The notes below the pieces were generated by a model. It made no database searches. It had not been told where the DNA came from and saw only the letters and a list, made by a program, of their open reading frames with translations. From sequence record MH560358: a DNA stretch of 64,000 nucleotides; one strand, 5' to 3'. The DNA comes from Escherichia virus KFS-EC. A program made the translations under genes and the position numbers. Of the stretch, positions 25,734 to 52,478 are shown piece by piece. Within the stretch, counting starts at the first letter, position 1. Each line of letters opens with the position of its first letter.

Positions 25734-27785
25734 TTACATTTTAAATTTATCTGGCATTGCGTCTACAGATACCAGATCAGCGATAAGCTGACGTAGAGTT
25801 GCCTTATCTGCTTTCTTACGTTCGGTTTTAGCTTCGCTAATGAAGCTGGAGAAAGACAGGTCAGAAGCAGGTTTAACAACACCTTCACGGATGAATGCAT
25901 CACCGTCCGCGATCATCTCGCCAGATTCTTGTAATGCTGCCAGTTCATTTTTGTTCATAATATGTGCCTCAATGTAATAAGTTTCTTGTGAATCCGTCGA
26001 TGCCGTAGCACGAGTTACCGTATCAAAGGATAACACAACACCGCGAGGAAGTAAAATCTCGCATTCTTTGTAAGCAAATGCTTTGTTACCTACTGGCAAG
26101 ACAGGGAGGTTTTCCGCGCCAGCAATGGAGAAAGCAACATTAGCGCCACCTTCACCACGAGAGCCAGCCATAGAATCAACACCAGCAACGGCACTAGCCA
26201 CGTTTGCATTCCAGCCGCCAAAAATGTTAGGTGCAAGGGAAGTGCTCACATAGTTTTTAAAGTAAAACGCTTTTTGCTTACGTGCAGTTTCCCACATTTG
26301 CGACCGGAAGTCCATACCACGATACAGAATAGTACCCGGATCAAGTTTAACGCCATAGTTGGAGAAGGCATTATCCAGTGCATCGCACATCTTGACCAAT
26401 TCTTCTGGATCTGAGATGCCTTCAAACTCTTCCAGCTTACGGTCGGTTAGGAAGTTGTTCATATTGATGTATGCTGCATCGGCATATTCGCTCAACACAA
26501 AACCTTCCGCGCCTGGCAGATCAAGATCAATATCTGCCATCATTTCACCCATGTTGCTAGCAATTGCTTCAAACATACCGGAAGCAACATTACGTAGGGC
26601 ATCGGTTTTAATCTGGGTGATGTGACTACGCAGCATTTCAGCTTTTACATCTGCTGGCATAGACTGGTCTACTCGAACCATTGCTAGGGCGGTGATCTTG
26701 TTTTCGAATACTTCCTCGCTCATGATTTCTTTTAAGCGTTTGATTGATGCTGCGATAACTTCCGCAGACAACGGATCATATTGATCCTGAACTTTTACCA
26801 GTTCGCTTACTGCGTATTTTGCATCGGCTTCGCTTTCAAAAATAGTACGCATGAAACCATAGCGAGTGATAATATCACTTGTCCAGTCATTCAGAGAACG
26901 GGCGGTTGAACGTTCTAAGGCTTGACGATCAATCAGAGTATTAAACTGTTTCTTAGGTTCGGCTTCGGTGATATCTTCTTCCGGTTTAAGATTAATTTTT
27001 TCTGGATGATTCACATAGTCGCTGTTATAGGTCGCTTGAGTTTTCAGCATTTCTTCTTTAGTCAAACGAGATTTAGCCGCTACGCGTTGTTCCGCTTCCG
27101 CGTTTCGTTCTTCTTCTGACACAAGACTAGCCGCATACGCCTCATCTTTAGTCAGTGATTCACCAGTAGCCTTAGATACCCAGCGATCACCTAAATCACT
27201 TTCTACTTTAGTGAACAAGGATTCATCAAGTTTAATCCCTTTAATCTTATCAATCGCCATACCGCGACGCTTGACAACAACTAAAGCGATCTTTTTGCTG
27301 GTCATTACTTCCTGCTGGAATACTTCAAACTTCGGTGTACGACGCACCAAACGCTCTATAACGCGCTTAACCAGTTCGGTCTTACCTTTCATGCGGGATA
27401 CGTTAAAACGGAACATAACAGCGTCTAATTGCGCTTTACGGGCTGTTTCCATAACCACATCAAAAGCACTTGCCATGACTGCAATCGGGTTATCGCCTAG
27501 ACCATTTTTAAGCTGTACAATACGACCGCTTTTGTTCATTTCGCACAGTACAACATGTGCGGTCTTGTCACCCATACGAATGATTTTAGGTGTTTTGTTG
27601 GTGAAGTTACAAAGACGGACAATCACATCTTTATCGCGTGTCTGTACTGCAAAAAGCTGTTTAGGATTCTGCTTAGGCTTTAAGCACTGTACAGGAGCAA
27701 TACTGCCAAAGTTTTCTTCCTCTTCCGTCAACAGCCATTTCTCGAAAGATTCAATCATTAGATCGTCGATTTCTAAGTTAAACAT
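25734..27785 (-). CDS. alt: ADP-ribosyltransferase Alt
   Basis: 683 aa (T4 Alt is 682); C-terminal domain with ILYRG...YVSTS...ECEILLPRG. Confidence 0.9.
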   Translation of the reverse strand: MFNLEIDDLMIESFEKWLLTEEEENFGSIAPVQCLKPKQNPKQLFAVQTRDKDVIVRLCNFTNKTPKIIRMGDKTAHVVLCEMNKSGRIVQLKNGLGDNPIAVMASAFDVVMETARKAQLDAVMFRFNVSRMKGKTELVKRVIERLVRRTPKFEVFQQEVMTSKKIALVVVKRRGMAIDKIKGIKLDESLFTKVESDLGDRWVSKATGESLTKDEAYAASLVSEEERNAEAEQRVAAKSRLTKEEMLKTQATYNSDYVNHPEKINLKPEEDITEAEPKKQFNTLIDRQALERSTARSLNDWTSDIITRYGFMRTIFESEADAKYAVSELVKVQDQYDPLSAEVIAASIKRLKEIMSEEVFENKITALAMVRVDQSMPADVKAEMLRSHITQIKTDALRNVASGMFEAIASNMGEMMADIDLDLPGAEGFVLSEYADAAYINMNNFLTDRKLEEFEGISDPEELVKMCDALDNAFSNYGVKLDPGTILYRGMDFRSQMWETARKQKAFYFKNYVSTSLAPNIFGGWNANVASAVAGVDSMAGSRGEGGANVAFSIAGAENLPVLPVGNKAFAYKECEILLPRGVVLSFDTVTRATASTDSQETYYIEAHIMNKNELAALQESGEMIADGDAFIREGVVKPASDLSFSSFISEAKTERKKADKATLRQLIADLVSVDAMPDKFKM

Positions 27786-27853
27786 TTTATATCCTCTAGT
27801 TGATAACCTATAAACCTATATTTATGAAAACGGGGATTAACGCCCCCTTTTTA

Positions 27854-28066
27854 TTATAATGCACCATCAAGCAATTGCTCTAAGGTGTATCCTGAATAGT
27901 CTTTTTCAATCAGGATATATTTTCCTACTCGTTTAATACAACCACGCATTTCAACGTATTCTGCGTAGTTGATGGTACGAGTTGTTCCATCTTCCAGTAA
28001 TGCAGTACCGATTTCGTTAATGCGGTCATAAGTTACGTCGGTAATGATGATTTCGATGTTAGCCAT
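27854..28066 (-). CDS. Hypothetical protein (70 aa)
   Basis: Start moved to internal ATG (MANIEIIITD) with TAAGGAGT ribosome binding site; the track start lies inside the promoter. Confidence 0.5.
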   Translation of the reverse strand: MANIEIIITDVTYDRINEIGTALLEDGTTRTINYAEYVEMRGCIKRVGKYILIEKDYSGYTLEQLLDGAL

Positions 28067-28102
28067 TTGATACTCCTTAGTAGTTCGTTTCGGTATGTGT
28101 GC

Positions 28103-28131
28103 ATTATAGGGGATCACCGATCCCCTGTCAA
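28103..28131 (-). promoter_or_regulatory. PeSL-type early promoter (TTGACA, GGGGATCggtGATCCCC, TATAAT)
   Basis: Minus strand: -35 TTGACA, 17-nt spacer that is a perfect GC palindrome, -10 TATAAT, then conserved leader ending in a ribosome binding site. Confidence 0.6.
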
Positions 28132-28138
28132 CAACTTT

Positions 28139-28657
28139 TTAGTTATTTTTTAATTGTTCATCTTGCAATAATGCAATCACATGCTGGCGATGTTCTTCCG
28201 ATTGAGGTACACCGAAAAAGTTTGTTTTGTAGAAATACTCTAATCGGTCTTCTCGTGTGCTCTCTTCCATCATGATCGCGGGTAGTCCGAGATTTCGGAA
28301 ACGTCGCTTTTCTGCTGGCGTAAAATCACTGTAATACAACATAGAATCATCATTACAAGCAATGCTAAACTCATCTTTCATAAAGGAGAATATTGCGTTT
28401 AAACGCTGTTTACCGTCCACGATTTCGATCTCATAGCGAGAGCCATCATCAATCTTAGCCATTGCGATAGCACCAACCGGAAAATCATTAATCAGGTTTT
28501 CGATAAACATACGTTTGTTTTCGGTGTCCCATACCAAAGGACGCTGATAATCTGGGTTCATGTTGATATAGCCATCTTCTAACCATGCTTCGTAAACAGA
28601 GATGACAAAGTTTTTAGTATTGGTATAGTAACGGCGTTTAGGCGTTAAACGGTTCAT
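28139..28657 (-). CDS. ParB-like / DUF262-like protein (172 aa)
   Basis: DYQRPLVW and DGKQRL motifs typical of the DUF262 ParB/Srx-fold domain; ATG placed 1 nt after the upstream stop. Confidence 0.55.
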   Translation of the reverse strand: MNRLTPKRRYYTNTKNFVISVYEAWLEDGYINMNPDYQRPLVWDTENKRMFIENLINDFPVGAIAMAKIDDGSRYEIEIVDGKQRLNAIFSFMKDEFSIACNDDSMLYYSDFTPAEKRRFRNLGLPAIMMEESTREDRLEYFYKTNFFGVPQSEEHRQHVIALLQDEQLKNN

Positions 28658-28658
28658 G

Positions 28659-28991
28659 TTATAGTCTCCTGAATGGATCATCACGTAAATCAATATCTTT
28701 TAAGAACTCATCCCATGAATGGCGGATATTGTTCTTAATTCTCCAGATAAGCGCAGGGATTGAACGCTCTCCCATCTGGAAGTATGGATCATATGATCCG
28801 TATGACCAATATGCTACTACAATTCCACAATCAGCGCAATAGTATTCTATTTCACTTGCTGGCGACCAAAGTCCATCAATATGATCGGTGATCTTGCTTT
28901 CGATGTTATGGCTATGACAATCAGGGCAACGGATGCAATGACCTTGTTTATCGTAATTTGACGTTAGAGAATACTTAAACAATCTCATCAT
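28659..28991 (-). CDS. Zinc-ribbon protein (110 aa)
   Basis: CIRCPDCHSH ... YYCADCG, two CxxC pairs; ATGA overlap with the upstream methyltransferase-like gene. Confidence 0.5.
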   Translation of the reverse strand: MMRLFKYSLTSNYDKQGHCIRCPDCHSHNIESKITDHIDGLWSPASEIEYYCADCGIVVAYWSYGSYDPYFQMGERSIPALIWRIKNNIRHSWDEFLKDIDLRDDPFRRL

Positions 28992-29704
28992 GGATCCTTA
29001 TTTGCTTCAAATACTGCCTTTGCGAATCCTCGCGGGGTAAGTGACCTGATAGTCTTTGTTTTCGTTCCTTTCCCGCCTAGCTTAGAATGCTGTTTACTGT
29101 ACCCTTTATTAATCTGCACCGGTTTCTTTTCTGGCATTATAAAGCCTTGTCCGGTCCATAAGCAAGTCTTTTTTGGGTACATATCACGGGCGGCAATATA
29201 CTCAGGAAACGTAGGATGCTTATCATCTTCCGGCAAATAACCGCCATATTCCCACGGATGGAACATGTAATCAGGCTTACGCCACATGCTAGAGATAACG
29301 CTTACAGGATTCTCTATCATGTAGGGAACTCCTAGCCATTCACCCAAATAAGCGGTTATTTTAGCTGCCCGTACATCATGAACTTGAATCAATGGTCCTT
29401 GTTCTAGTTTCTTTCGTTCAAAGTGCGCAGCGCCACTAACAGCTAAATTGGTGCACGGTGGGAATGCAAAGATAATATCCGGTTTCCCCCATTCAAGGTC
29501 CATTGCTCTTTCCAGCCAGTTCAAATCAACCCAGGTGTTTACATAGGTAATGTTTTGATGTTCAAATCGGGTATTATATTTTTTGTATGTACCGTGGTCG
29601 CCATCGTCAGCATTAAAGCAGATCACCTTATGACCCGCTTTAGCCCATTCTAACCCCATTATCCCCGATCCGTCAAAGTTGCAGAATATTAATTTTTGTT
29701 TCAT
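28988..29704 (-). CDS. Cytosine-C5 methyltransferase-fold protein, minimal (238 aa)
   Basis: Motif I FCNFDGSGIMG, motif IV DIIFAFPPCTNLAVSG (PC catalytic dipeptide), motif VI YMIENPVSV (ENV-like), C-terminal TPRGFAKAV (motif IX/X-like); no room for a conventional target-recognition domain. Confidence 0.6.
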   Translation of the reverse strand: MKQKLIFCNFDGSGIMGLEWAKAGHKVICFNADDGDHGTYKKYNTRFEHQNITYVNTWVDLNWLERAMDLEWGKPDIIFAFPPCTNLAVSGAAHFERKKLEQGPLIQVHDVRAAKITAYLGEWLGVPYMIENPVSVISSMWRKPDYMFHPWEYGGYLPEDDKHPTFPEYIAARDMYPKKTCLWTGQGFIMPEKKPVQINKGYSKQHSKLGGKGTKTKTIRSLTPRGFAKAVFEANKDP

Positions 29705-29946
29705 ATACTCCCCTTTAATCCAACACAGATTTTAGAAGGTTCTTTGCCGTGCCACATTAAGTAAAGTCCGTTAATGCGGCCTTGTTTTGTATATGATTCT
29801 TTTCTGATCTTCTTATAGTGTCGTGTTTCCTCAGCCGATTGTTTAGAATACCAATCATAAAGGAAGATGAACAAAGGCCACCCATTAGCGGCCTTAATGC
29901 AGTTATTCAAAAATTCCTTATTGCGTTTAATTAATTTTCTTTTCAC
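29701..29946 (-). CDS. Hypothetical protein (81 aa)
   Basis: Start (possibly GTG) overlaps the upstream stop; basic N-terminus and hydrophobic WPLFIFLYDWY segment. Confidence 0.4.
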   Translation of the reverse strand: MKRKLIKRNKEFLNNCIKAANGWPLFIFLYDWYSKQSAEETRHYKKIRKESYTKQGRINGLYLMWHGKEPSKICVGLKGSI

Positions 29947-30194
29947 GCTGCCCCCATTGGTTTGATAGTAACAGAATCTAAAAGACCTTTGTTAGCCAGT
30001 TCGCGGCAAGTTTTCAGATCCGCAACTTCCCAGCCAGCCGCAATCAGGTTATCGATTAGGCTGTTAGCAACTTCTTCGCTCATGAAAGAGCACTGTTTGC
30101 CGATGGTGTAGCGTACACGCTGTAATTTCAGTTTACGGAAGCCTTTAACGTTCAGGTCTTTAGCGATTTTCTTTGCGGTTTCGATGTTAGCCAT
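29943..30194 (-). CDS. Hypothetical protein (83 aa), first gene of coupled operon
   Basis: ATG with ribosome binding site directly downstream of a PeSL promoter. Confidence 0.5.
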   Translation of the reverse strand: MANIETAKKIAKDLNVKGFRKLKLQRVRYTIGKQCSFMSEEVANSLIDNLIAAGWEVADLKTCRELANKGLLDSVTIKPMGAA

Positions 30195-30234
30195 TGTTTG
30201 ATTCTCCTAAGTGGTATCTCGTCTTGATGGTTGT

Positions 30235-30264
30235 ATTGTAGGGGGAGTTATCCTCCCCTGTCAA
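30235..30264 (-). promoter_or_regulatory. PeSL-type early promoter (TTGACA, GGGGAGGataaCTCCCCC, TACAAT)
   Basis: -35/-10 hexamers bracketing an 18-nt GC palindrome; leader almost identical to that at 31139-31173. Confidence 0.55.
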
Positions 30265-30278
30265 CACTTTTTATAAAA

Positions 30279-30446
30279 TTATTTGTTAATTTCTGGTGCG
30301 TTGCTAGGATAGTAACCTTCTTTAACTCCGAGATATTTCGCAACCATCCCTACAATCTTCTGTGCTACTACAATGTCAAATTTCAGATAATCTTCGCCGT
30401 GGGTTTCAATGATATATGCTTCACATGCTGCTTTAGTCTCGAACAT
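30279..30446 (-). CDS. Small protein (55 aa), copy 1 of duplicated gene
   Basis: ATG ORF MFETKAACEAYIIETHGEDYLKFDIVVAQKIVGMVAKYLGVKEGYYPSNAPEINK, about 90 percent identical to the 33560..33727 product; under 60 aa so absent from the track. Confidence 0.5.
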   Translation of the reverse strand: MFETKAACEAYIIETHGEDYLKFDIVVAQKIVGMVAKYLGVKEGYYPSNAPEINK

Positions 30447-30479
30447 TTTGATTCTCCTATTTCGTTTCGTTATGTGTGT

Positions 30480-30508
30480 ATTATAGGGGATCTCCCGATC
30501 CCCGTCAA
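30480..30508 (-). promoter_or_regulatory. PeSL-type early promoter (TTGACG, GGGGATCgggagATCCCC, TATAAT)
   Basis: Palindromic spacer between -35 and -10 on the minus strand. Confidence 0.55.
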
Positions 30509-30522
30509 CAACTTTTTTAAAA

Positions 30523-30804
30523 TTATTCGTGATTAGTTTCGATGTTGTGCATTTTGCACCAGTTCAGCCAATCACCCAGATCCTGATAGTTAATGCTTTT
30601 ATCTGCTGCCATCGTTTTTGTCTTGATACCCATATGTGCGTTATGAGTAAGCATTTTTACAGTGAACTCAATTTTATCACCTTTAGCTTTAACATCAACC
30701 AGTTTGGTCCACTGGCTACCAGCGCCGCGAATGTTCATACCAACGATGTTTCCGATGTATGCTTCTTTGTTTTTCAGGATTTCGGTTGCTTTGATGAATT
30801 TCAT
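30523..30804 (-). CDS. Hypothetical protein (93 aa)
   Basis: ATG ORF with upstream promoter and conserved leader. Confidence 0.5.
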   Translation of the reverse strand: MKFIKATEILKNKEAYIGNIVGMNIRGAGSQWTKLVDVKAKGDKIEFTVKMLTHNAHMGIKTKTMAADKSINYQDLGDWLNWCKMHNIETNHE

Positions 30805-30837
30805 TTTTGATTCTCCAGTTCGTTTCGGTATGTGTGT

Positions 30838-30866
30838 ATTATGCTATGTTCTTACTTTGGTGTCAA
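30838..30866 (-). promoter_or_regulatory. Sigma70-like early promoter (TTGACA / CATAAT), no palindrome
   Basis: Same -35 and conserved leader (ACACACATACCGAAACGAAC) as the PeSL promoters but a non-palindromic spacer. Confidence 0.5.
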
Positions 30867-30874
30867 CAACTTTT

Positions 30875-31144
30875 TTAGATATTTTCAGAAATAAATTTTA
30901 AAACTTGACGTAAATGTTTCTCATCTTTGATAGTCGCCGGAAGTTCTTCTTTTACTTCCTGTGCAAGATAGATATTTCCGTTCCAAGTGAAAGATCCGTC
31001 TTCGTTTACGCGATAGCTGAACATCCACTCGCAATCATTTTCGATTTCATATACACACAGAAGGGTGTAATCGTTAAAGTTATTGATTTCAAGGTCGAAG
31101 CCGTGACGTTTTGCAAAGTTGGTAGTGGTTTTAGTCAGCGCCAT
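30875..31144 (-). CDS. Hypothetical protein (89 aa)
   Basis: ATG ORF; 5' leader nearly identical to that of the 29943..30194 gene. Confidence 0.5.
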   Translation of the reverse strand: MALTKTTTNFAKRHGFDLEINNFNDYTLLCVYEIENDCEWMFSYRVNEDGSFTWNGNIYLAQEVKEELPATIKDEKHLRQVLKFISENI

Positions 31145-31184
31145 TGTTTGATTCTCCTAAGTGGTATCTCGTTTCGATGTGTGT

Positions 31185-31213
31185 ATTATGCTATAGGCGT
31201 GATTTGGTGTCAA
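31185..31213 (-). promoter_or_regulatory. Sigma70-like early promoter (TTGACA / CATAAT)
   Basis: -35 and -10 with 17-nt spacer on the minus strand. Confidence 0.5.
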
Positions 31214-31235
31214 TGCCTTTTTTAAAATTTTATGC

Positions 31236-31262
31236 AATAAAAAGCCGACGCTAAGGTCGGCT
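31236..31262 (-). terminator. Rho-independent terminator downstream of the 31270..31578 gene
   Basis: AGCCGAC-gctaag-GTCGGCT hairpin with U-tract on the minus strand. Confidence 0.6.
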
Positions 31263-31269
31263 AATAAAA

Positions 31270-31578
31270 TCATTTAGACAAATAATCATTCTGTGCAATC
31301 CGGTCGGCGTATGCTGGTGTTATGTCAATCGCCAACACTTTAACGCGTGCTTTCTTGCGACCTGGGTTTTCTCGTAACCAGTGCTCATGACCGTGAACAT
31401 TTTTATACTGAGATGCTTCTTCGAAGGTACGGATCGGACCTGGGTAATCAGCGTAAAGGATCTCTAGGTCATCGGTGATGTAAAAATATACATCATAATT
31501 ACTGTTCTCTAGTTTAAGCAGAGAGTTGCGAAATTGTGGTAAATTCTCGCGGGTAAATTCAACTACAAGATTTTTCAT
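31270..31578 (-). CDS. HxHW-VLAVDV family small protein (102 aa), paralogue 1
   Basis: Signature YFYITDD ... HGHEHWL ... VLAIDI shared with five neighbouring ORFs. Confidence 0.55.
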   Translation of the reverse strand: MKNLVVEFTRENLPQFRNSLLKLENSNYDVYFYITDDLEILYADYPGPIRTFEEASQYKNVHGHEHWLRENPGRKKARVKVLAIDITPAYADRIAQNDYLSK

Positions 31579-31628
31579 AGTGATATCCTCATTCAGATAG
31601 ATTAAAAGGGGGCTTAACGCCCCGTATA

Positions 31629-31916
31629 TTAAAACAGTCCTTCCTGTACACCGTAGTAGAGTTCGTCGCTGATAATTTCATTAATGCGACGGTGTGCATA
31701 TTCCTGATTTGCGAAGTTGTCAGCAAGTTCTACTTTAGTTTCGCCGTCATGAGTCCATTTAGTGATAACTTTACCATCTGCAAATTTGAAGTTGAACTCT
31801 TTAGCTACTGCATCGCGTACCAGACGTGCGAACTTGTTGTTACGGATTGCATTATCGGTTTCGTGTGCAGCGTGAGCGAATTTGTTAACTTTCAGAGTGA
31901 TAGTAATGTATGCCAT
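31629..31916 (-). CDS. Hypothetical protein (95 aa), related to the 34945..35256 product
   Basis: Shares ...VR.A.AKEFN.K... segment with the 34945..35256 ORF. Confidence 0.5.
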   Translation of the reverse strand: MAYITITLKVNKFAHAAHETDNAIRNNKFARLVRDAVAKEFNFKFADGKVITKWTHDGETKVELADNFANQEYAHRRINEIISDELYYGVQEGLF

Positions 31917-31962
31917 AATTTGATTCTCCTAGTTAGAAAGTGTATCTCGTTTCGATGGGGAT

Positions 31963-31991
31963 ATTATGCTATATCCCCGATCCGGTGTCAA
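31963..31991 (-). promoter_or_regulatory. PeSL-type early promoter with palindrome overlapping the -10
   Basis: TTGACA, 17-nt spacer, CATAAT; GGGGATAT...ATATCCCC inverted repeat spans the -10 region. Confidence 0.5.
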
Positions 31992-31997
31992 CACTTT

Positions 31998-32276
31998 TTA
32001 TAAAATAATTTTTTGATATTTTTCTATGATGTTTGTGTAGGTCACGTCAACCGCTAGCACCGTTGCTTCGAATCCACCGTTTAACCAATGGCTATGATCA
32101 TGATCGTGAAAGAAACCTAGACCAGTACGAAGACCTTCTTTATATTCGGCGCGTACATTTAGATCATCATCGATAAACAGATAAAACCATGAATTTTTAC
32201 TAGGATTGATGATACAACCTTTCAGATTAGGGAGAATATCACGACTAAGAATAAACTTATCACCTACTTTGAACAT
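31998..32276 (-). CDS. HxHW-VLAVDV family small protein (92 aa), paralogue 2
   Basis: Start moved to ATG (MFKVGDKF) with GAGGA ribosome binding site; motif FHDHDHSHWL ... VLAVDV. Confidence 0.55.
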   Translation of the reverse strand: MFKVGDKFILSRDILPNLKGCIINPSKNSWFYLFIDDDLNVRAEYKEGLRTGLGFFHDHDHSHWLNGGFEATVLAVDVTYTNIIEKYQKIIL

Positions 32277-32280
32277 AATA

Positions 32281-32601
32281 TTAGTCCTCACTTATAAGGT
32301 CAAACCAATTGTTTTTCGCATAATGCTTAATGCGTGCTTGATCTGCTTCCGCTGGTGATAGATTCCATGCAACCACTACAACTTCTGACGCATCGTCATC
32401 CGTTTCTGATACCCAATGATTGTGATTCATACAGTTATTTGCTATCGAGTGAGCAAATGATTTCATCACTGGAGACGTATAATCATAGTAACGGATTTTC
32501 AGATTTTCATCAACATACAAGTAGATCGTATAAGGTTTATATTCAGTAACCAGTAACAGACAGTTACGCAATTCTGGGAAAATCTTTTTAGTTAATTTCA
32601 T
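32281..32601 (-). CDS. HxHW family small protein (106 aa), paralogue 3
   Basis: Start moved to ATG (MKLTKKIF) one nt after the upstream stop; motif NHNHWV ... VVVVAWN. Confidence 0.5.
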   Translation of the reverse strand: MKLTKKIFPELRNCLLLVTEYKPYTIYLYVDENLKIRYYDYTSPVMKSFAHSIANNCMNHNHWVSETDDDASEVVVVAWNLSPAEADQARIKHYAKNNWFDLISED

Positions 32602-32602
32602 T

Positions 32603-32821
32603 TTATAATCCTCGGTCTCGGCTATAGTACACGGTACGCCATACAATTTCATGTTTCGTGTCGCTCCAGCACACGATCTCATTTACTCTTAAATCTTTGT
32701 TATCAACAAAAGATGAACATTGTGACGCTTCTTTCATCATTTTATCTGCTGTTTTCTCATCAAATACAGCACAGATTTCTTTATACACTCGATAATCTTT
32801 GAATTGACTCTGAATACCCAT
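32603..32821 (-). CDS. Hypothetical protein (about 72 aa), member of a two-gene paralogue pair
   Basis: SQFKDYRVYKEI...KMMKEASQCSSF parallels SKFKEYKAYQQI...KMMEDASKCPSF in the next ORF; start uncertain (41-nt overlap with upstream gene). Confidence 0.45.
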   Translation of the reverse strand: MGIQSQFKDYRVYKEICAVFDEKTADKMMKEASQCSSFVDNKDLRVNEIVCWSDTKHEIVWRTVYYSRDRGL

Positions 32822-33044
32822 AATTAACACCATTCCAACCAATTGTTTTTGAGAAAACGTTTATCCACTGTTGAGTGTAGCATGTTTCTTTCCATGATAC
32901 AATACGAGTGGAATAATGGTTTTTGTTTCCAGAAAAGGACGGGCATTTTGATGCATCTTCCATCATCTTTTCGGCGAACTCTGGTGCGTATACTCGCAGG
33001 ATCTGTTGATATGCTTTGTATTCTTTAAATTTGCTCATAATCAT
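32781..33044 (-). CDS. Hypothetical protein (87 aa), member of a two-gene paralogue pair
   Basis: ATG ORF; paralogue of 32603..32821. Confidence 0.45.
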   Translation of the reverse strand: MIMSKFKEYKAYQQILRVYAPEFAEKMMEDASKCPSFSGNKNHYSTRIVSWKETCYTQQWINVFSKTIGWNGVNYGYSESIQRLSSV

Positions 33045-33303
33045 TCACTACCTTATCAGCTTCTTTTGTTGTTTTTACATCAACTGCGATAACTCGTAAA
33101 GGTTCGTCATGGTTCCACCAGTGGTCATGAATATCAGCTTGTGATTTATCACCAAAGGAATCACGAATATCATTTTTACATTTATAGCTAATGTGACCTT
33201 CATAGTCAACATAAAGGTAATTATCGAAAATCGGCGTTTTTAAGATCATACCGAAAAATCTTTCTTTGTGTGTCTTATCCAGCGTTACAGTAATTCGCAT
33301 CAT
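33025..33303 (-). CDS. HxHW-VLAVDV family small protein (92 aa), paralogue 4
   Basis: Motif YLYVDYEG ... IHDHWW ... VIAVDV. Confidence 0.55.
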   Translation of the reverse strand: MMRITVTLDKTHKERFFGMILKTPIFDNYLYVDYEGHISYKCKNDIRDSFGDKSQADIHDHWWNHDEPLRVIAVDVKTTKEADKVVNDYEQI

Positions 33304-33315
33304 AATATATTCCTC

Positions 33316-33495
33316 TTAGAAAGGGATGGTCATTTCTTGAGCTTGTACATTCTCGTTAGGATTAAACTTCATCCAACCGATATTGTCTACCAGCATATGT
33401 ACATTTTTATCATATCCTACGTGAGTAGTCAACACTAAATGTGCTTTACCTTCAACGATGATTTCCATGTACTTCTGAACTTCGATAGCTTTCAT
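33316..33495 (-). CDS. Small protein (59 aa)
   Basis: ATG ORF MKAIEVQKYMEIIVEGK... with conserved leader and ribosome binding site; under 60 aa. Confidence 0.4.
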   Translation of the reverse strand: MKAIEVQKYMEIIVEGKAHLVLTTHVGYDKNVHMLVDNIGWMKFNPNENVQAQEMTIPF

Positions 33496-33559
33496 TTTGA
33501 TTCTCCGTTTGTTGTCTTGATGGGAGTATCTTACTACTCCCTTTAATCATTGTCAACTA

Positions 33560-33727
33560 TTATTTGTTAATTTCCGGTGCGTTGCTCGGATAGTAACCTT
33601 CTTTAACACCTAGATATTTTGCAACCATTCCGGTGATCTTCTGTGCTACTACGATATCGAATTTCAGGTAGTCTTCACCGTGGTTTGCTACAATGTATGC
33701 TTCGCATTCTGCTTTAGTCTGGAACAT
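33560..33727 (-). CDS. Small protein (55 aa), copy 2 of duplicated gene
   Basis: Start moved to ATG (MFQTKAECEAY); near-identical to the 30279..30446 product; preceded by PeSL promoter. Confidence 0.5.
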   Translation of the reverse strand: MFQTKAECEAYIVANHGEDYLKFDIVVAQKITGMVAKYLGVKEGYYPSNAPEINK

Positions 33728-33761
33728 TTTTGATTCTCCTATATCTCGTTGGTATGTGTGC

Positions 33762-33790
33762 ATTATAGGGGATCGGTGATCCCCTGTCAA
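33762..33790 (-). promoter_or_regulatory. PeSL-type early promoter (TTGACA, GGGGATCaccGATCCCC, TATAAT)
   Basis: Same architecture and almost the same palindrome as the promoter at 28103-28131. Confidence 0.6.
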
Positions 33791-33795
33791 CAACT

Positions 33796-34089
33796 TTATA
33801 ATGCTTTATATGCGTATTTCATAAATTTGTCTGCCACTTCATTGGCATGTTCAGATTCTACGCCTGATTCGAGAACAATAGCTAGGTCGGTTTCGTCATT
33901 CCCGCCGTACCAATGATTTGATGTTCGATTTTTTTCAATTGGAAATTGGTCACTTTTATCTGTGCGACAAAATACATCTAAATGCTCGTCGATGTAAAAG
34001 ATCCAATCTTCATAAAGAATAACGGTATTAGCAAGATTTTTATTGCCTTCAACGAAAGGTTCGGCTACAAACAAATTAGTATGTTCCAT
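33796..34089 (-). CDS. HxHW-related small protein (97 aa), paralogue 5
   Basis: Start moved to ATG (MEHTNLF) with GAGGAAA ribosome binding site; motif IFYIDEH ... SNHWY ... LAIVLE. Confidence 0.45.
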   Translation of the reverse strand: MEHTNLFVAEPFVEGNKNLANTVILYEDWIFYIDEHLDVFCRTDKSDQFPIEKNRTSNHWYGGNDETDLAIVLESGVESEHANEVADKFMKYAYKAL

Positions 34090-34105
34090 AGTATTTTCCT
34101 CAAAA

Positions 34106-34297
34106 TTATACAGCTTCGTAAACTTCCCAATGTCCAACACCAGCACGCTTAACGAAAAGGTTTTCTTTGATGTTATTCATAAACGTCTGGATGGATTTAA
34201 TGCGGTTTGAAGGTTTCCATTCTTCGTTGGCATTGCGTCGATACATCATAACATTACCAGTTCGCTTATATTCAGCAACCATTTTAAGACCACACAT
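34106..34297 (-). CDS. Hypothetical protein (63 aa)
   Basis: ATG with GAGGA ribosome binding site. Confidence 0.45.
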   Translation of the reverse strand: MCGLKMVAEYKRTGNVMMYRRNANEEWKPSNRIKSIQTFMNNIKENLFVKRAGVGHWEVYEAV

Positions 34298-34354
34298 AAT
34301 ATTATCCTCAATTTGTGGGAGAGTATTACCCCTCCCAATGATTGTTATGTTATA

Positions 34355-34675
34355 TCACACAAAATGGCGTGTCAATGCTTCTTTTGCGGTTCCGCTAAGA
34401 CTTTCGATCTCGCCTGGCATAACATCAACCGCCAGAACTTCTACAACATCCTCGGACCCTAACCAGTGAGTATGACCTTTGTAGAACTTGATAACCAGAC
34501 TACCTTCCTCGTCCCATTTAACGCTATCGCTAGCCCACCACACATCACCGTCGATAAAGTTGATGTAAAGCACACTACGCCACATTGAATTAATTACTTT
34601 CAATACTGCGCCTTTCATCTCTTCCACGGTATGGTCTTCCATTTTGAAGACCTCACCTACCTGAACTTTTGCCAT
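34355..34675 (-). CDS. HxHW-VLAVDV family small protein (106 aa), paralogue 6
   Basis: Motif YINFIDGD ... GHTHWL ... VLAVDV. Confidence 0.55.
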   Translation of the reverse strand: MAKVQVGEVFKMEDHTVEEMKGAVLKVINSMWRSVLYINFIDGDVWWASDSVKWDEEGSLVIKFYKGHTHWLGSEDVVEVLAVDVMPGEIESLSGTAKEALTRHFV

Positions 34676-34692
34676 TTAGTCACCTCTCTTTA

Positions 34693-34872
34693 TTACATAA
34701 CACTCACGCCAGCCGTTGAAAGTTGATGTTTCAACTGAGCATTTTCTGCTACCGTCAAATCAATGATTTCTTGTGACGCTGCAATCATATAGCCATTGGT
34801 GATATTGTTTTGCATCAGTTCAATGGTTTCTTCGTTGTAGCGGATTTTAGCGATGATTTCGTTGAAGTTCAT
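34693..34872 (-). CDS. Small protein (59 aa)
   Basis: ATG ORF MNFNEIIAKIRYNEETIELMQ... downstream of PeSL promoter; under 60 aa. Confidence 0.4.
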   Translation of the reverse strand: MNFNEIIAKIRYNEETIELMQNNITNGYMIAASQEIIDLTVAENAQLKHQLSTAGVSVM

Positions 34873-34906
34873 AATTGATTCTCCTAGTTCGTTTCGGTAT
34901 GTGTGT

Positions 34907-34936
34907 AGTATAGGGGAGTTTAACCTCCCCTGTCAA
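34907..34936 (-). promoter_or_regulatory. PeSL-type early promoter (TTGACA, GGGGAGGttaaaCTCCCC, TATACT)
   Basis: Palindromic 18-nt spacer between -35 and -10. Confidence 0.55.
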
Positions 34937-34944
34937 CAACTTTT

Positions 34945-35256
34945 TTAAAGTTTTTCCATGATAACGGTCATAATTACATCTTCTGCGCGAGCGGTCAGAT
35001 TATCAGCGTCAGCATGTGGGCGGTTGGTTGTTACAGAGATAACACCGTTGCGCACTGGTTTGATATTGATATCAAGATGATCCGCGAAACGTTCGCCAGT
35101 TACAGAATGAATTTTGGTGTTAAATTCTTTTGCCAGTGCCTTGCGAACTTCACGAATCAGGATAGCGTTTTTCAGTTGGTTCTCCGCGCTCATGGTCTTC
35201 TGGGTGTTCATGGTTCCGTCGAAGTCAATCATTGGCAGCGTTACGATGTATTTCAT
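34945..35256 (-). CDS. Hypothetical protein (103 aa)
   Basis: ATG ORF downstream of PeSL promoter; related to the 31629..31916 product. Confidence 0.5.
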   Translation of the reverse strand: MKYIVTLPMIDFDGTMNTQKTMSAENQLKNAILIREVRKALAKEFNTKIHSVTGERFADHLDINIKPVRNGVISVTTNRPHADADNLTARAEDVIMTVIMEKL

Positions 35257-35301
35257 TTTTGATTCTCCGTTTAAGAAAGTGTGTTTCGTTTTGATGTGTG
35301 T

Positions 35302-35330
35302 AGTATAGGGGATACGTGATCCCCTGTCAA
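35302..35330 (-). promoter_or_regulatory. PeSL-type early promoter (TTGACA, GGGGATCacgtaTCCCC, TATACT)
   Basis: Palindromic 17-nt spacer. Confidence 0.55.
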
Positions 35331-35343
35331 CAACTTTTTTGAA

Positions 35344-35688
35344 TTATTTTTTCATGAGCTTAATGGCTTCTTCCATAGCCAGCACATTTCGATAGTTAGG
35401 GTATCGTGTTAGATCGTCATACATTCGCTTAAGGGTGGAAACTTCCTCAAACTCTGGGTTTTCTAGATACAGTTGAACAAATTGTTTCTCTACCATCTCG
35501 GCTTTTAGCTTGTCTGCTTGTTCCTGTTCATATGATTTCGTTGGACCCAACACCAACAAAATGATAAAGGTGATCAACGGGCTAATGATCAATGATAGGA
35601 TAACATAACCGATAACGCTACGGTTTAAACGGCTTGCATACATGCCTACCAGGAAAACAAAAAGGATATAGATAAACAGAAAGAACAT
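35344..35688 (-). CDS. Membrane protein (114 aa)
   Basis: Two hydrophobic helices in the N-terminal half followed by a charged tail. Confidence 0.5.
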   Translation of the reverse strand: MFFLFIYILFVFLVGMYASRLNRSVIGYVILSLIISPLITFIILLVLGPTKSYEQEQADKLKAEMVEKQFVQLYLENPEFEEVSTLKRMYDDLTRYPNYRNVLAMEEAIKLMKK

Positions 35689-35695
35689 ATAATGG

Positions 35696-36169
35696 TTACT
35701 CCTTATTTTCGCGCTCGTACTTTTCGAAATAAAATTCTACTGGCTGGTCATGAATTGACAGCAAGCCAAAGCGTTTAGCCGCTCGCAATCCCATATTGCG
35801 CTGAATGTACTTCTGGAAGTTCTCGCGTATACACTTACGCCAGTATTCTAAGCCCATACAGCTTTTATAAAGATTGCATTGCACACACGCCGGATTCATG
35901 TTATCAAGTATATCATGTTCCGGTTTATGCATTCCTACAACCTTATACTTCCACGATCCATCATCATTACGGGCAATTCGTCCATTTTCATCATAGACTA
36001 CCTTTGAGCGTCGCAATACTGGTTTGATGTGGTCTGCGTGCCAGCGATCCCCTAGTTCCTCGCCACAATAGGCACAGCGTCCACCATATTTCATTTTCAG
36101 GATCTGGCGTTGCTCTTTCTTTGACAATTTTTTAGGTTTAGGGGCTTTCGACCCTTCATTATCACACAT
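35696..36169 (-). CDS. HNH endonuclease (157 aa)
   Basis: CAYCGEEL ... HADHIKP ... NMNPACVQCNLYK, classical HNH/His-Me finger with zinc ligands; start overlaps the ligase stop. Confidence 0.7.
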   Translation of the reverse strand: MCDNEGSKAPKPKKLSKKEQRQILKMKYGGRCAYCGEELGDRWHADHIKPVLRRSKVVYDENGRIARNDDGSWKYKVVGMHKPEHDILDNMNPACVQCNLYKSCMGLEYWRKCIRENFQKYIQRNMGLRAAKRFGLLSIHDQPVEFYFEKYERENKE

Positions 36170-37658
36170 CGAATACCTCTTTTACTGTATTTGCAGTGGT
36201 CTTGTCGTAGCGAATACGTTTGATGATCGGGAGAAATAAAGAGAACTCCGGTTCATCTTCTTTACGTGATTTGCTGCGAATGTACCCGTTGCATGTCATC
36301 TCAATGACTTTTCCAATCAGGTTATGACGGTCAGCCCATAACATTTCTCGGTCTAGTTCATTTCGACGATCGAACGGAATTACACGTTCAATACCATCAT
36401 CACCTTTTTCGGTTGTGGTGTCGGTTAATCCCGATCCGGTGTTAGTCATCATTCGTCCGCACGCACTACGGACAGTAAAACCGCCTACCTTATTAGGATC
36501 TTTACTATGCGGATATACATCAACAATTTCAGCGTCGAAGTCAATCACTTCTTTAAATTTAACCTGATCTTTACTGCGACGATCTTCAAATACACCATGT
36601 AAATTTTTAAGGATAATACCTTCTAAGCCCATGTTTACATAGCGATGATATACTTCGCGAGCTTCATCGATATTGTTAACTACAGTATTTTCGATTATCT
36701 GAACACGAGGATCGTTAAGTTCTTCAACAATCTGTTTTAGTTCTTCGAATCGATCTTTATATTGCTTCGTTGCTTTCTCGTTTCCGTAATACACATCACG
36801 GTCGATAACATCCCAGACAGTATAAACAATACATTGGGCTTCTTCTTTTGGAATAGTTCCTTTAAGTGATTTGTTGAGGATACCATTTCCGGTCTGACGG
36901 TCTGCAACAACGGATTCTTTTACTGCTTCCGCTACTGGCGTTAATGGCATTTCCTCTTCTTCAAATATCCATGACAGAGTACCATCATAAACGCTTTCAA
37001 CGAAGTTCTGCGCTGGTGTTTGCGAAAGGGTAGGCATATATACCAATTCGCCATCTAGAACAATTCCACGGCCTCGTAGACGCTCTAAAACCGCAAACAA
37101 ATCATCAAGTCCCTGATAGGTATTACCTGAACGGGTATAGATTGCTAATGTTTCCCCGTCAATATCAGCCATACCACGAGCGCCATCGCTTTTAAGTTGT
37201 GCATACGCCGGATACTTGATATTAGCAATAGTCTTATCAGAACATGACGATGCAAGGTGGCACGGCTGCTGGGGGATCAGTTTCTTCCATACCTTGTTTG
37301 CGGTGGTAGCGGAACAACCGCATTCCAAATCACGATTCAGGACCATCATTGCAACTTTAGCATCATCTTCTGACAAGCAGGTCAGAGTATCGGTAACTAG
37401 CTGTAATGCTGCGTTACCAGTTACTTGACGCGTGGCAAGTTTATTTTTAAAGACCTGTAATGCACCGGATAAAGACAATACAGACGAATAACGCGATGGT
37501 TTATCGTATTTCTTTACGCCAAACGTAACCTGTTTGCAATATGCCAGATAAAAGCATTCTTTCAGCGTTTCATTGCTCGCGGATTCTTTCAGGATCTTTT
37601 CTTTCAGCGATGTTTTGTCTGTTGCTGCAAGCTGGTTAATGATATTAAGAATTGACAT
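36162..37658 (-). CDS. 30: ATP-dependent DNA ligase gp30
   Basis: Motif I KSDGAR and similarity to T4 DNA ligase; start moved to ATG (MSILNI) with GAGGTGA ribosome binding site. Confidence 0.9.
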   Translation of the reverse strand: MSILNIINQLAATDKTSLKEKILKESASNETLKECFYLAYCKQVTFGVKKYDKPSRYSSVLSLSGALQVFKNKLATRQVTGNAALQLVTDTLTCLSEDDAKVAMMVLNRDLECGCSATTANKVWKKLIPQQPCHLASSCSDKTIANIKYPAYAQLKSDGARGMADIDGETLAIYTRSGNTYQGLDDLFAVLERLRGRGIVLDGELVYMPTLSQTPAQNFVESVYDGTLSWIFEEEEMPLTPVAEAVKESVVADRQTGNGILNKSLKGTIPKEEAQCIVYTVWDVIDRDVYYGNEKATKQYKDRFEELKQIVEELNDPRVQIIENTVVNNIDEAREVYHRYVNMGLEGIILKNLHGVFEDRRSKDQVKFKEVIDFDAEIVDVYPHSKDPNKVGGFTVRSACGRMMTNTGSGLTDTTTEKGDDGIERVIPFDRRNELDREMLWADRHNLIGKVIEMTCNGYIRSKSRKEDEPEFSLFLPIIKRIRYDKTTANTVKEVFDV

Positions 37659-43690: not shown

Positions 43691-44089
43691 TTAACTTTCC
43701 AGAATATCGCGAGCTTCGTTACGATCCTTGATGATTTTCAAGACAAATTCCAGTTTTTCTTTGTTCAGCGTTCCATTTTCCATTGCTTCTTTGACGGTAA
43801 ACACTCCGCCACCTTGCCCGTATACAGTGACAGTGATTTCACCTAACATCGTGGTATGAAAACCGCCAATTTTCGGTGATTCGAAAGAAACAATTACCTC
43901 GCGAACAGTATTACCGTCGTTGATTTCTGAGAGGGTAATGTCGTTTTTGTAGGCGGTTGCTTTAACCATACGGATCAGCATAGTCTGATCTGGGGAGATG
44001 GTCATTTTGTCCATTGTATGTTGCAATGCAGCGTAACCGAAAACTTTAACGAAGTCCAGAACGTCTTTGCGAGTTTGAAATTTAATCAT
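43691..44089 (-). CDS. Hypothetical protein (132 aa)
   Basis: ATG ORF downstream of PeSL promoter. Confidence 0.5.
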   Translation of the reverse strand: MIKFQTRKDVLDFVKVFGYAALQHTMDKMTISPDQTMLIRMVKATAYKNDITLSEINDGNTVREVIVSFESPKIGGFHTTMLGEITVTVYGQGGGVFTVKEAMENGTLNKEKLEFVLKIIKDRNEARDILES

Positions 44090-44115
44090 CTTGATACTCC
44101 TTAGTTGTTTTGGTA

Positions 44116-44150
44116 TGGGAGTATCTTACTACTCCCGTGATATGCTGTCA
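44116..44150 (-). promoter_or_regulatory. PeSL-type early promoter (GGGAGTAtcttacTACTCCC palindrome)
   Basis: TTGACA at 44145-44150 with a GC-clamped palindrome covering the -10 region. Confidence 0.45.
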
Positions 44151-44159
44151 ACTGCTTTT

Positions 44160-44309
44160 TTATGCAACCGCAAACATCAACATTTGAACATTCTTGGCTG
44201 TCTGGCTTTCAAAGTTCTGACATTCTTTGATAATGTCCTCTACTTTCTCGCCGGAGATCTCCGCGTAAGTTTCGATTGCCATTTTCAGTACCGCGTCAAA
44301 GTTGTTCAT
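44160..44309 (-). CDS. Small protein (49 aa)
   Basis: ATG ORF MNNFDAVLKMAIETYAEISGEK... between two PeSL elements; conserved leader and ribosome binding site. Confidence 0.35.
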   Translation of the reverse strand: MNNFDAVLKMAIETYAEISGEKVEDIIKECQNFESQTAKNVQMLMFAVA

Positions 44310-44341
44310 TTGATTCTCCTTAAAGTGTATTTCGTTTCGAT

Positions 44342-44376
44342 GGGGGTATATTACTACCCCCGTTTCATGCTGTCAA
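44342..44376 (-). promoter_or_regulatory. PeSL-type early promoter (GGGGGTAtattacTACCCCC palindrome)
   Basis: TTGACA followed by palindrome overlapping the -10. Confidence 0.45.
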
Positions 44377-44595
44377 CTACTTTTTAATGACAAGTTCGAA
44401 TTTTGCTACCTTGCGTCCTCGTTTATTGAAAGCAACCCACGGACGGTTTTCAATGTAGAACAATTCTTCGCCAATAATGAATACTGGCTGATTGTAAAGG
44501 CGACCCATCAGGTCACGCTGGCGAATGGTAGTAGATTCGTATACTTCGCCTACTACAAAGTGCTTGCTGATAGAGTCGGTGCAAGTAAATTTCAT
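44377..44595 (-). CDS. Hypothetical protein (72 aa)
   Basis: ATG ORF; stop abuts the next promoter. Confidence 0.5.
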   Translation of the reverse strand: MKFTCTDSISKHFVVGEVYESTTIRQRDLMGRLYNQPVFIIGEELFYIENRPWVAFNKRGRKVAKFELVIKK

Positions 44596-44622
44596 TTTGA
44601 TTCTCCTTTGTTTCGTTTCGAT

Positions 44623-44657
44623 GGGGGTATATTACTACCCCCGTTATTCAGTGTCAA
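44623..44657 (-). promoter_or_regulatory. PeSL-type early promoter (GGGGGTAtattacTACCCCC palindrome, second copy)
   Basis: Palindrome identical to the one at 44342-44361. Confidence 0.45.
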
Positions 44658-44664
44658 CTACTTT

Positions 44665-44883
44665 TTACTTGTTGTATTCATTCCACCATTGGGTTAGCTT
44701 ATCAATTATTTTTGTGTTTCTATCCAACTTCTCCCACCGTTTTCTAGGGTTTATCAACCGGAATAGGTAAGGTGTACTTGTTAAGTGAACTCGGTCAATG
44801 TAGTGATTGATGTACTGCTTTTCGATTCTAAGTTTCATCTTTTTACGATGAAAATATGCAATGACTTGTTCTTCTGTTTCCAT
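44665..44883 (-). CDS. Hypothetical protein (72 aa)
   Basis: ATG ORF with upstream sigma70-like promoter. Confidence 0.5.
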   Translation of the reverse strand: METEEQVIAYFHRKKMKLRIEKQYINHYIDRVHLTSTPYLFRLINPRKRWEKLDRNTKIIDKLTQWWNEYNK

Positions 44884-46974: not shown

Positions 46975-47141
46975 TATTCGACAACCTCAAAGCATTTATC
47001 ATCAGGAAGAATAGCCCATTCTACGCCATATTCATCCTCAACGTAGTAGCAAGCCCCATCATGTCGAGCATCATATTCATCACCGACAACAAAGCTATCA
47101 GCTAGCTCAAAATCTACAGCAACACATTTTAATTTGGTCAT
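46974..47141 (-). CDS. Small acidic protein (55 aa)
   Basis: Start moved to ATG (MTKLKCVAVDF) with GTGAGGA ribosome binding site downstream of a PeSL promoter. Confidence 0.45.
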   Translation of the reverse strand: MTKLKCVAVDFELADSFVVGDEYDARHDGACYYVEDEYGVEWAILPDDKCFEVVE

Positions 47142-47172
47142 AATAAAATCCTCACTTGTTTTTGATGGTTGT

Positions 47173-47201: not shown

Positions 47202-47209
47202 CACTTATT

Positions 47210-52011: not shown

Positions 52012-52042
52012 AATATAGTCCTCTCTTTGTTTCGATGTTTGT

Positions 52043-52453: not shown

Positions 52454-52478
52454 CACCTTTTTCATAAAATTTTAGGCA

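Follow-up and report, generated by a model that had tools for sequence, protein, structure and literature searches.

Promoter stem-loop cassettes in hyperplastic region 3 of an RB49-like Escherichia phage very probably act as expression signals and as joints for gene gain and loss

We analysed 64,000 nucleotides (nt) from Escherichia virus KFS-EC (record MH560358), here called the window. Between alt and the DNA ligase gene, the window carries a block of small minus-strand early genes. Promoter cassettes, mostly with a G/C-rich hairpin, recur in the gaps between these genes. The cassettes are promoter-early stem-loops (PeSLs), already known at this exact locus in the same genus. They very probably serve as expression signals and as joints for gene gain and loss, and comparison with 17 relatives supports the role as joints. 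The genes, named from open reading frames (ORFs) of phage RB49, are as follows.

25734-27785: alt, identified by synteny with annotated relatives.
27854..35256, minus strand: 23 small early genes (RB49 numbering ORF185, 187-191, 193, 194, 197-210).
35344-35688, minus strand: gene for an ORF211-like membrane protein, between block and ligase, present or absent among relatives.
35696-36169, minus strand: HNH endonuclease gene, between the ORF211-like gene and ligase.
36162-37658: DNA ligase (gene 30), identified by synteny with annotated relatives.

We compared window positions 27000-36500 with a phage collection using megablast. Nearly all of the 62 matching records are Krischvirus, of the RB49, phi1, JSE and GEC-3S group. 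The best matches are Delraymugoa and Aragogtheria (96.7% identity, 100% query coverage), and phi1 and GEC-3S match at 94% identity. Over the block itself, Krischvirus genomes are 94-98% identical. PHB13 aligns with positions 27000-37000 as one collinear high-scoring segment pair (HSP) of 95.6% identity. The first-pass annotation of this DNA, made from its letters, had proposed alignment as a check of shared ORFs. For RB49 (97-98%) and phi1 (93-98%) the HSPs are collinear across the block, gene lengths agree with ORF185-213 and orthology with ORF185-213 of both phages holds gene for gene. We assign the phage to Krischvirus, as a T4-like coliphage of the RB49/phi1/JSE/GEC-3S type. The block is hyperplastic region 3 (HPR3), the orthologue of RB49 ORF185-211 and phi1 ORF185-210. 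Hence, an initial impression that the content is unique was mistaken; moreover, all ten proteins scanned against PHROGs belong to existing families. Synteny did confirm the placement of the block between alt and DNA ligase. The first estimate of about 25 ORFs holds for the interval from alt to ligase, which has 25 genes. Inside 27854-35340 there are 23, and the ORF211-like and HNH genes separate the block from ligase. This isolate is without ORF186, 192 and 195/196 and has ORF211, an arrangement common to PHB13.

A repeat search identified a six-copy family of 60 nt (family D1) on the minus strand between the small ORFs. The palindrome-promoter pattern TTGACAGGGGA-N(4-12)-TCCCCTATA was observed four times, against 0.00 expected. 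Cassettes were then defined by an nhmmer profile. A strict regular expression (TTGACA with at most one mismatch, N16-18, TANNNT) misses the CATAAT-type cassettes at 31991, 31213 and 30866. At E<=3e-10 the profile matched 16 places in the window; all are minus-strand, and ten fall inside 27854-35340. These searches bear out the repeated promoter cassettes first noticed in the sequence. In the window and its 17 relatives together, the profile hits number 193 (113 unique), all on one strand. An independent scan for the consensus TTGACA-N17/18-TATAAT returned nine sites scoring 11-12/12, all of them cassettes, and two more scoring 10/12; every site was intergenic and on the minus strand. Each cassette occupies one intergenic gap of 67-128 nt. 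The ten block cassettes and a further divergent promoter are listed below, named by flanking genes.

35257..35346, minus strand: PeSL 211/210, with TTGACA (-35 at 35330), in-spacer hairpin GGGGAT-CACGT-ATCCCC, TATACT, leader, GGAGAATCAAA and the ATG of ORF210.
34873..34947, minus strand: PeSL 210/209, with -35 at 34936, in-spacer hairpin GGGGAG-GTTAAA-CTCCCC and TATACT.
34298..34375, minus strand: divergent promoter 208/207, TTGACA-N17-TAACAT (10/12), with an 8-bp hairpin in the leader, downstream of the -10 box.
33728..33798, minus strand: PeSL 206/205, with -35 at 33790, a perfect TTGACA-N17-TATAAT and in-spacer hairpin GGGGATC-ACC-GATCCCC.
33496..33562, minus strand: PeSL 205/204, with -35 at 33556; hairpin GGGAGTA-GTAAGA-TACTCCC overlaps the -10 box (TAAGAT).
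31917..32000, minus strand: PeSL 199/198, with -35 at 31991; hairpin GGGGATAT-AGCATA-ATATCCCC overlaps the -10 box (CATAAT).
31145..31272, minus strand: PeSL 197/194, a canonical terminator at 31262-31243 (GCCGAC...GTCGGC TTTTT), then an AT-rich stretch and a promoter (-35 at 31213, CATAAT).
30805..30877, minus strand: promoter-only cassette 194/193, with -35 at 30866 and no hairpin.
30447..30525, minus strand: PeSL 193/191, with -35 at 30508, TTGACG, GGGGATC-GGGA-GATCCCC and TATAAT; RB49 has ORFan192 at the same site.
30195..30281, minus strand: PeSL 191/190, with -35 at 30264, in-spacer hairpin GGGGAG-GATAA-CTCCCC and TACAAT.
28067..28141, minus strand: PeSL 187/185, with -35 at 28131, a chimera whose 5' part is of 187/186 type and 3' part of 186/185 type; it is the remnant of ORF186 loss.

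Briefly, a cassette begins with the upstream stop codon in an A-rich stretch. A near-consensus sigma-70 promoter follows, mostly with its G/C-rich hairpin, and a short, unstructured CA/A-rich leader leads to a strong Shine-Dalgarno sequence and the ATG. All ten intergenic cassettes start with TAA or TGA, then (A/T)n-GTTG/GTG and then TTGAC. In nine of ten the Shine-Dalgarno end is GGAGAATCAA(A/T), 3-6 nt ahead of the ATG; the tenth has GGAGTATCAA. The motif GGAGRAYMRAW occurs 11 times (1.1 expected), on every occasion at a cassette 3' end. A conserved leader had been described from the letters alone. Its end is indeed conserved, but ACACACATACCGAAACGAAC is matched by only four of the ten cassettes at up to three mismatches; the others have a second leader variant. 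Overall, pairwise identity between cassettes is 34-77% and the longest exact shared runs are 7-28 nt. The claim that most ORFs have a promoter was also too broad. Ten profile cassettes and the divergent promoter at 34375 give 11 of the 23 genes a promoter of their own. The remaining genes, closely packed or overlapping, lie downstream in units of up to six genes.

The hairpin moves with respect to the promoter. Six hairpins lie in the spacer (28105-28131, 30480-30508, 30235-30264, 33764-33790, 34909-34936 and 35304-35330) and have the GGGGA...TCCCC palindrome first described. The expectation of such a perfect palindrome in the spacer or -10 region fails elsewhere: the two hairpins over the -10 box have different sequences, one hairpin is a terminator upstream of the AT-rich stretch, one is in the leader (34375) and one cassette has none. 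On folding, eight of ten cassettes reached -10.5 to -18.3 kcal/mol, six of these eight with z between -2.5 and -4.5. The z values were weaker for the stable folds at 35330 (-1.6) and 31991 (-1.95). Cassette 30866 gave no hairpin on folding (-2.0 kcal/mol, z=+0.4). For the divergent promoter 208/207, a 91-nt segment folded at -20.4 kcal/mol (z=-2.5).

Stem sequences change in a compensatory manner across the 193 cassettes. GGGGAT/ATCCCC is found versus GGGGAG/CTCCCC, and GGGAGTA/TACTCCC versus GGGGGTA/TACCCCC. In the window and 17 relatives, GGGGATAT/ATATCCCC likewise varies with GGGTGTAT/ATACACCC. For hairpins overlapping the -10 box, 93% of alignment cells pair, none of 500 shuffles reached the covariation score and every slid register scored lower. 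In-spacer hairpins, folded singly, have a stem of 6-8 bp in every member. The hairpin is under selection. The palindromes could in principle be double-stranded operators through which a dimeric protein, from phage or host, controls the early promoters. Their dyad symmetry suits such a protein, which would block RNA polymerase when bound in the spacer. However, a sequence-specific operator would retain sequence and position, not pairing alone. Here the stem sequence varies between cassettes while compensatory changes keep the pairing, the position shifts among spacer, -10 box, leader and the region upstream of the AT-rich stretch, and the loop varies from 3 to 6 nt. The moving position and the compensatory changes indicate a nucleic-acid structure, and we consider an operator very unlikely.

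Loops also differ. The 3-nt loop is ACC at window positions 33767-33785 and its reverse complement, GGT, at 28108-28126. At the ORF205 junction in the relatives (L001-L017) both loops, ACC and GGT, occur with both TATACT and TATAAT, so that all four combinations exist. One orthologous junction bears different hairpin types in different genomes. The flip points to hairpin inversion, to exchange or gene conversion within cassettes, or to both.

PeSLs were defined in phi1 and RB49 by Arbiol et al. 2010 (Genome Biol Evol 2:140, PMC2839356). The definition comprises an AT-rich region, TTGACA-N17-TATAAT, a G(n)-loop-C(n) stem-loop with five possible positions and a Shine-Dalgarno sequence with ATG (PMC2839356). 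Each genome has ~52 PeSLs, concentrated in hyperplastic regions (PMC2839356). Those tested sit at the 193/192, 206/205 and 211/210 junctions, all in HPR3 (PMC2839356). PeSL206/205 drives about 13,000 Miller units of lacZ, and the 193/192 junction was also fused to lacZ for promoter activity (PMC2839356). Insertion of the PeSL211/210 stem-loop cut downstream lacZ to a level comparable with rrnB T1 (PMC2839356). Mini-circles of ORFan192 and ORFan210 were recovered by inverse polymerase chain reaction (PCR), with none for control genes lacking flanking PeSLs; their junctions are scattered, and one in RB49 falls within the loop (PMC2839356). Of the tested elements, PeSL206/205 corresponds by orthology to the window cassette at 33790 and PeSL211/210 to that at 35330. 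Promoter, AT-rich start, stem-loop positions, Shine-Dalgarno sequence and ATG, clustering, breakpoints and orthology were all found at the present locus. In addition, the GenBank record of GEC-3S already annotates promoters and terminators of the block as features. The first-pass annotation had recognised the cassettes as PeSL-like, and their anatomy and their orthology with HPR3 of RB49 and phi1 (PMC2839356) uphold this. It had attributed them to RB49/RB43-type phages. The system was defined in RB49 and phi1; RB43 is marginal, with only "PeSL-like sequences" near gene 43 mentioned (PMC2839356).

We mapped breakpoints by chaining blastn HSPs between window positions 27000-37000 and the 17 relatives, recording every interruption. 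This identified 16 distinct indel or replacement events. At least one edge lies on a cassette in 12 of them. In seven events the junction has a duplicated cassette of 42-238 nt, as expected for exchange between direct repeats. In five, one edge is at the AT-rich 5' end of a cassette. Events with a duplicated cassette, and then two with one such edge, are as follows.

28066-28142: presence or absence of ORF186, with duplicated cassette.
31166-31261: presence or absence of ORF195/196, with duplicated cassette.
UPWr_E1 and Brandy: loss of ORF191, with duplicated cassette.
GoldenSnicker: loss of ORF210 alone, with duplicated cassette; the unit is that of the published ORFan210 mini-circle.
PTE-Eco09: loss of ORF206-209, with duplicated cassette.
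MIZ4: loss of ORF187-191, with duplicated cassette.
Cognac (locus L011): 3.0 kb deletion between the 220-nt ORF191 and ORF205 repeats, with duplicated cassette.
30523-30527: insertion site of ORF192 in RB49, one edge on a cassette.
35351-35709: ORF211 indel, one edge on a cassette.

The direct repeat of 220 nt (30230-30449 and 33511-33730, in ORF191 and ORF205) has 78% DNA identity and takes in the flanking cassettes. The ORF192 insertion is present in RB49, G2494 and MIZ6. Exact deletion of ORF210 and insertion of ORF192 are consistent with the published mini-circles. Breakpoint sites fall inside cassettes in 10 of 19 cases, although cassettes fill 12% of the block (p=3e-5). Hence, breakpoint mapping in the 17 relatives supports the early suggestion that cassettes drive modular shuffling. 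They are the main joint, not the sole one.

Three-way alignments of six chimeric cassettes, each with its two parents, revealed a clean switch from 5' parent to 3' parent. The crossover intervals are the AT-rich/-35 region (event E16), the stretch from terminator to -35 (E4) and the stretch from -10 box to Shine-Dalgarno sequence (E1, E7, E13). The published mini-circle junctions fall in these zones as well. Because crossovers are scattered, general homologous recombination between cassettes is favoured over a site-specific mechanism. Site-specific exchange, with a dedicated nuclease or recombinase acting at the hairpin, would have some appeal, since an HNH endonuclease gene adjoins the block, one RB49 mini-circle junction is within the loop (PMC2839356) and the GGT/ACC flip marks the hairpin itself as a site of DNA rearrangement. 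We regard it as extremely improbable. The natural crossovers of the six events occupy different intervals, the published junctions are likewise scattered, and the scans of block proteins revealed neither an integrase nor a recombinase domain.

We have little doubt that the block is HPR3 of an RB49-like Krischvirus, in which PeSL cassettes are both expression signals and joints for gene gain and loss. Judged from the sequence, host RNA polymerase would start at each cassette right after infection and transcribe a unit of one to six small genes. Reporter assays on the RB49 and phi1 PeSLs at the 206/205 and 193/192 junctions back this step. The hairpin would form in RNA read in from upstream, where it may attenuate transcription or mark or stabilise a 3' end. 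As direct repeats with exact runs, the cassettes would permit crossover by the general recombination machinery of the phage. Such crossovers could excise, delete or insert whole gene units that carry their own expression signals. Exchange of this kind is seen here as natural variation among the 17 relatives, and was seen as mini-circles in the published experiments.

Several observations weigh against this reading. Our literature search found no mapping of transcription starts or 3' ends for any Krischvirus, so promoter use in infection is deduced from consensus matches and plasmid reporters. When alignment columns are held fixed, the in-spacer hairpins show modest covariation (pairing in 86.5% of cells; score reached by 20 of 500 shuffles), since additional G or C bases move the stems out of register. 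Termination is a further difficulty. We defined an intrinsic terminator as a G/C-rich hairpin followed directly by a T-rich tract, with at least five T in 8 nt. The scan called three canonical sites only, at 27847, 31262 and 31623. It called none of the eight promoter-embedded hairpins, where the T-tract is absent; those in the spacer are followed by UAUAAU-ACACAC and not by a U-tract. Hence, the role of these hairpins as terminators depends on one published reporter construct (PeSL211/210). The called site within PeSL 197/194 is listed above and the other two are as follows.

31603..31625, minus strand: canonical terminator between ORF198 and ORF197, hairpin with T-tract and no promoter.
27828..27850, minus strand: terminator-like hairpin with T-tract, after ORF185 and ahead of alt.

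The hairpins might instead serve mainly to stabilise the 3' end of the upstream mRNA or to direct its processing by RNase. Absence of a T-tract from the in-spacer hairpins agrees with this. So does an extension of the stem that is possible in RNA only, through G-U pairs between the -35 flank and the -10 region, in several cassettes (for instance, GUGUUG/CAAUAC at 30264). Furthermore, the published lacZ assay does not separate termination from RNA processing or decay. Nevertheless, lowering of downstream lacZ to the level of rrnB T1 is most simply termination (PMC2839356), and we think a processing role somewhat unlikely. It would alter one sub-function only and leave the overall PeSL picture intact.

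The case for cassettes as joints also has its counterpoints. Cassette homology is small for efficient recombination, given the pairwise identities above. Four of the 16 events are free of cassettes, with microhomology of ~16-17 nt or none. Among them, ORF189.1 was lost or replaced, 265 nt were inserted at 34673-75 and ORF207 was lost. In UPWr_E1, the loss of ORF207 (34103-34297) seems to have gone through two ribosome-binding regions, TTGAGGATAATATTATG and TTTGAGGAAAATACTATG, that are alike over ~17 nt. Enrichment is only moderate when cassette junctions are set against gene junctions in general, a fairer null: breakpoints fall at nine of ten cassette junctions and at 7 of the 16 others (Fisher one-sided p=0.023). 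PeSLs could thus be passengers, with indels arising at any gene boundary by illegitimate or microhomology recombination and selection purging events within genes. As this would predict, none of the 19 breakpoint sites lies more than about 36 nt from a gene boundary, and the cassette-free events and the seven non-cassette breakpoints fit it too. We judge this explanation unlikely. The duplicated cassettes at seven junctions, with their clean parent switch, are the signature of homologous exchange between repeats, and cassette junctions are still used more often than others. Moreover, circles bounded by cassettes were obtained by inverse PCR, and none for controls without flanking PeSLs (PMC2839356).

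The cassette 3' ends carry an invariant 11-mer, GGAGAAUCAAA (or the form ending AAU). Ten of its 11 positions agree with GGAGRAYARAA, the target consensus of T4 RegB/S1. On the minus strand, the 11-mers are at 30197-30207, 30447-57, 30806-16, 31147-57, 31919-29, 33496-506, 33729-39, 34874-84, 35258-68, 44309-19 and 44596-606. RegB/S1 targets lie in Shine-Dalgarno regions of T4 early mRNAs (Durand et al. 2006, PMC1702504). As in T4, GGAGAAUCAAA is in the single-stranded A-rich leader of early genes; it differs by a C at position 8, where A is strongly preferred (PMC1702504). RB49 RegB is active and divergent (PMC3014915), and the presence of RegB is taken from this literature on RB49. The PeSL paper does not mention RegB (PMC2839356). 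We infer a possible RegB/S1 site from this resemblance only. Tentatively, and with some doubt, we suggest that GGAGAAUCAAA may be a putative RegB/S1 shut-off site on each shuffled unit, while hairpins may be swapped or inverted by gene conversion as the cassettes evolve in concert. Gene conversion among hairpin modules is suggested because hairpin types differ at one orthologous junction and because the GGT/ACC flip occurs in four combinations with the -10 box. If this is true, each shuffled unit would bring a promoter, an upstream insulator, a ribosome-binding site and a built-in early shut-off signal. The RegB role would be a function beyond those discussed in the PeSL papers.

Further cassettes lie outside the block.

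44079..44679, minus strand: three cassettes (-35 at 44657, 44376 and 44151).
47125-47223, minus strand: one cassette (-35 at 47201).
51996-52475, minus strand: two cassettes (-35 at 52453 and 52070).

A promoter with a hairpin over its -10 box is also seen at 25716, just downstream of alt. We considered GATC, at a fixed spacer position, as a Dam-sensitive element. This was ruled out: the window has 364 copies against 351 expected from trinucleotides, and GATC is missing from several cassette classes. Hence, it probably reflects shared ancestry. Across the 64 kb, other 4-mer palindromes have 103-364 copies each, and next to them GGCC (24 copies) and CCWGG (21 copies) seem scarce. This may reflect restriction avoidance, or avoidance of Dcm sites in a phage with unmodified cytosine.

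Recognisable domains or family names were found in only three of the 23 block genes: ORF187, ORF189 and, weakly, ORF188. ORF187 (172 aa, 28139-28657) has the N-terminal GmrSD_N/DUF262 domain only (E=5e-20), and the nuclease half of GmrSD is absent. ORF189 (28988-29704) is a DNA methyltransferase. ORF188 lies between ORF189 and ORF187, which is two genes downstream, and has a zinc-ribbon match below the cut-off. Among the 20 proteins scanned with Pfam (18 from the block, ORF211 and the HNH endonuclease), 17 had no match. The Pfam and PHROG scans of block proteins gave no function beyond GmrSD_N/DUF262, DNA methyltransferase and HNH. Searching 27000-36500 against Rfam (E<=1) gave no match to any family. 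Paralogues are numerous in the block, namely ORF191/205 (89% protein identity), ORF201/202, ORF198/210 (both phrog_7474) and the five-member family ORF197/199/200/203/208. Members of this last family (31270-31578, 31998-32276, 32281-32601, 33025-33303 and 34355-34675) lie within 3.4 kb and show an H-x-H-W motif by eye, with no Pfam family. In the 197/194 cassette, a 38-codon ORF (31157-31273) lies wholly over terminator and promoter. In Delraymugoa (locus L001 5907-6023) it is annotated as a coding sequence, probably an annotation artefact.

The anatomy, promoter and terminator activity and shuffling role of PeSLs were published in 2010 for the same genus and locus, and in 2014 for other T4-like phages. 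Hence, our findings carry little weight as a discovery, and their value is confirmation of a published system. With 17 genomes in place of the original two, natural indels reproduce the predicted exchanges, cassette by cassette. Comeau et al. 2014 (PMC4122927) left open whether exchange at PeSLs is site-specific or homologous. The scattered crossovers bear on that point and favour general homologous recombination. The "terminator" hairpins lacking a T-tract, the putative RegB site within the cassette and the absence of transcript mapping from the literature found may be of specialist interest.

Compared with PeSLs of RB49 and phi1, the genus, locus, gene order, cassette anatomy and subclasses of hairpin placement are the same, as are the indel positions at ORF186, 192, 195/196, 210 and 211. 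Nothing differs in kind. The window has its own combination of present and absent genes, and its cassette 30866 is free of a hairpin. PeSLs of T4/PST and KVP40/nt-1 (Comeau et al. 2014, PMC4122927) share the composite promoter-terminator idea, indels in hyperplastic regions and proposed mini-circles. Their promoters differ (TTTACW...TAYWAT and TTGYVH...TAWWAT), as do their stems (AGNA...TCNT and A3-4G3...C3T3-4), which are mostly upstream of the promoter (PMC4122927). Unlike these, the window has near-perfect sigma-70 boxes of RB49 type and G(n)/C(n) stems. Canonical intrinsic (Rho-independent) terminators similarly place a G/C-rich hairpin in the intergenic region after a stop codon, and the sites at 27847, 31262 and 31623 fit this description fully. 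Conversely, the six in-spacer and two -10-overlapping hairpins are without a T-tract. Finally, integron attC cassettes resemble PeSL units in comprising small promoter-proximal gene units with imperfect palindromic repeats at their borders, and in excision of circles and reinsertion. PeSL units differ in having no integrase or site-specific recombination and a promoter in each, with exchange apparently by general homologous recombination.

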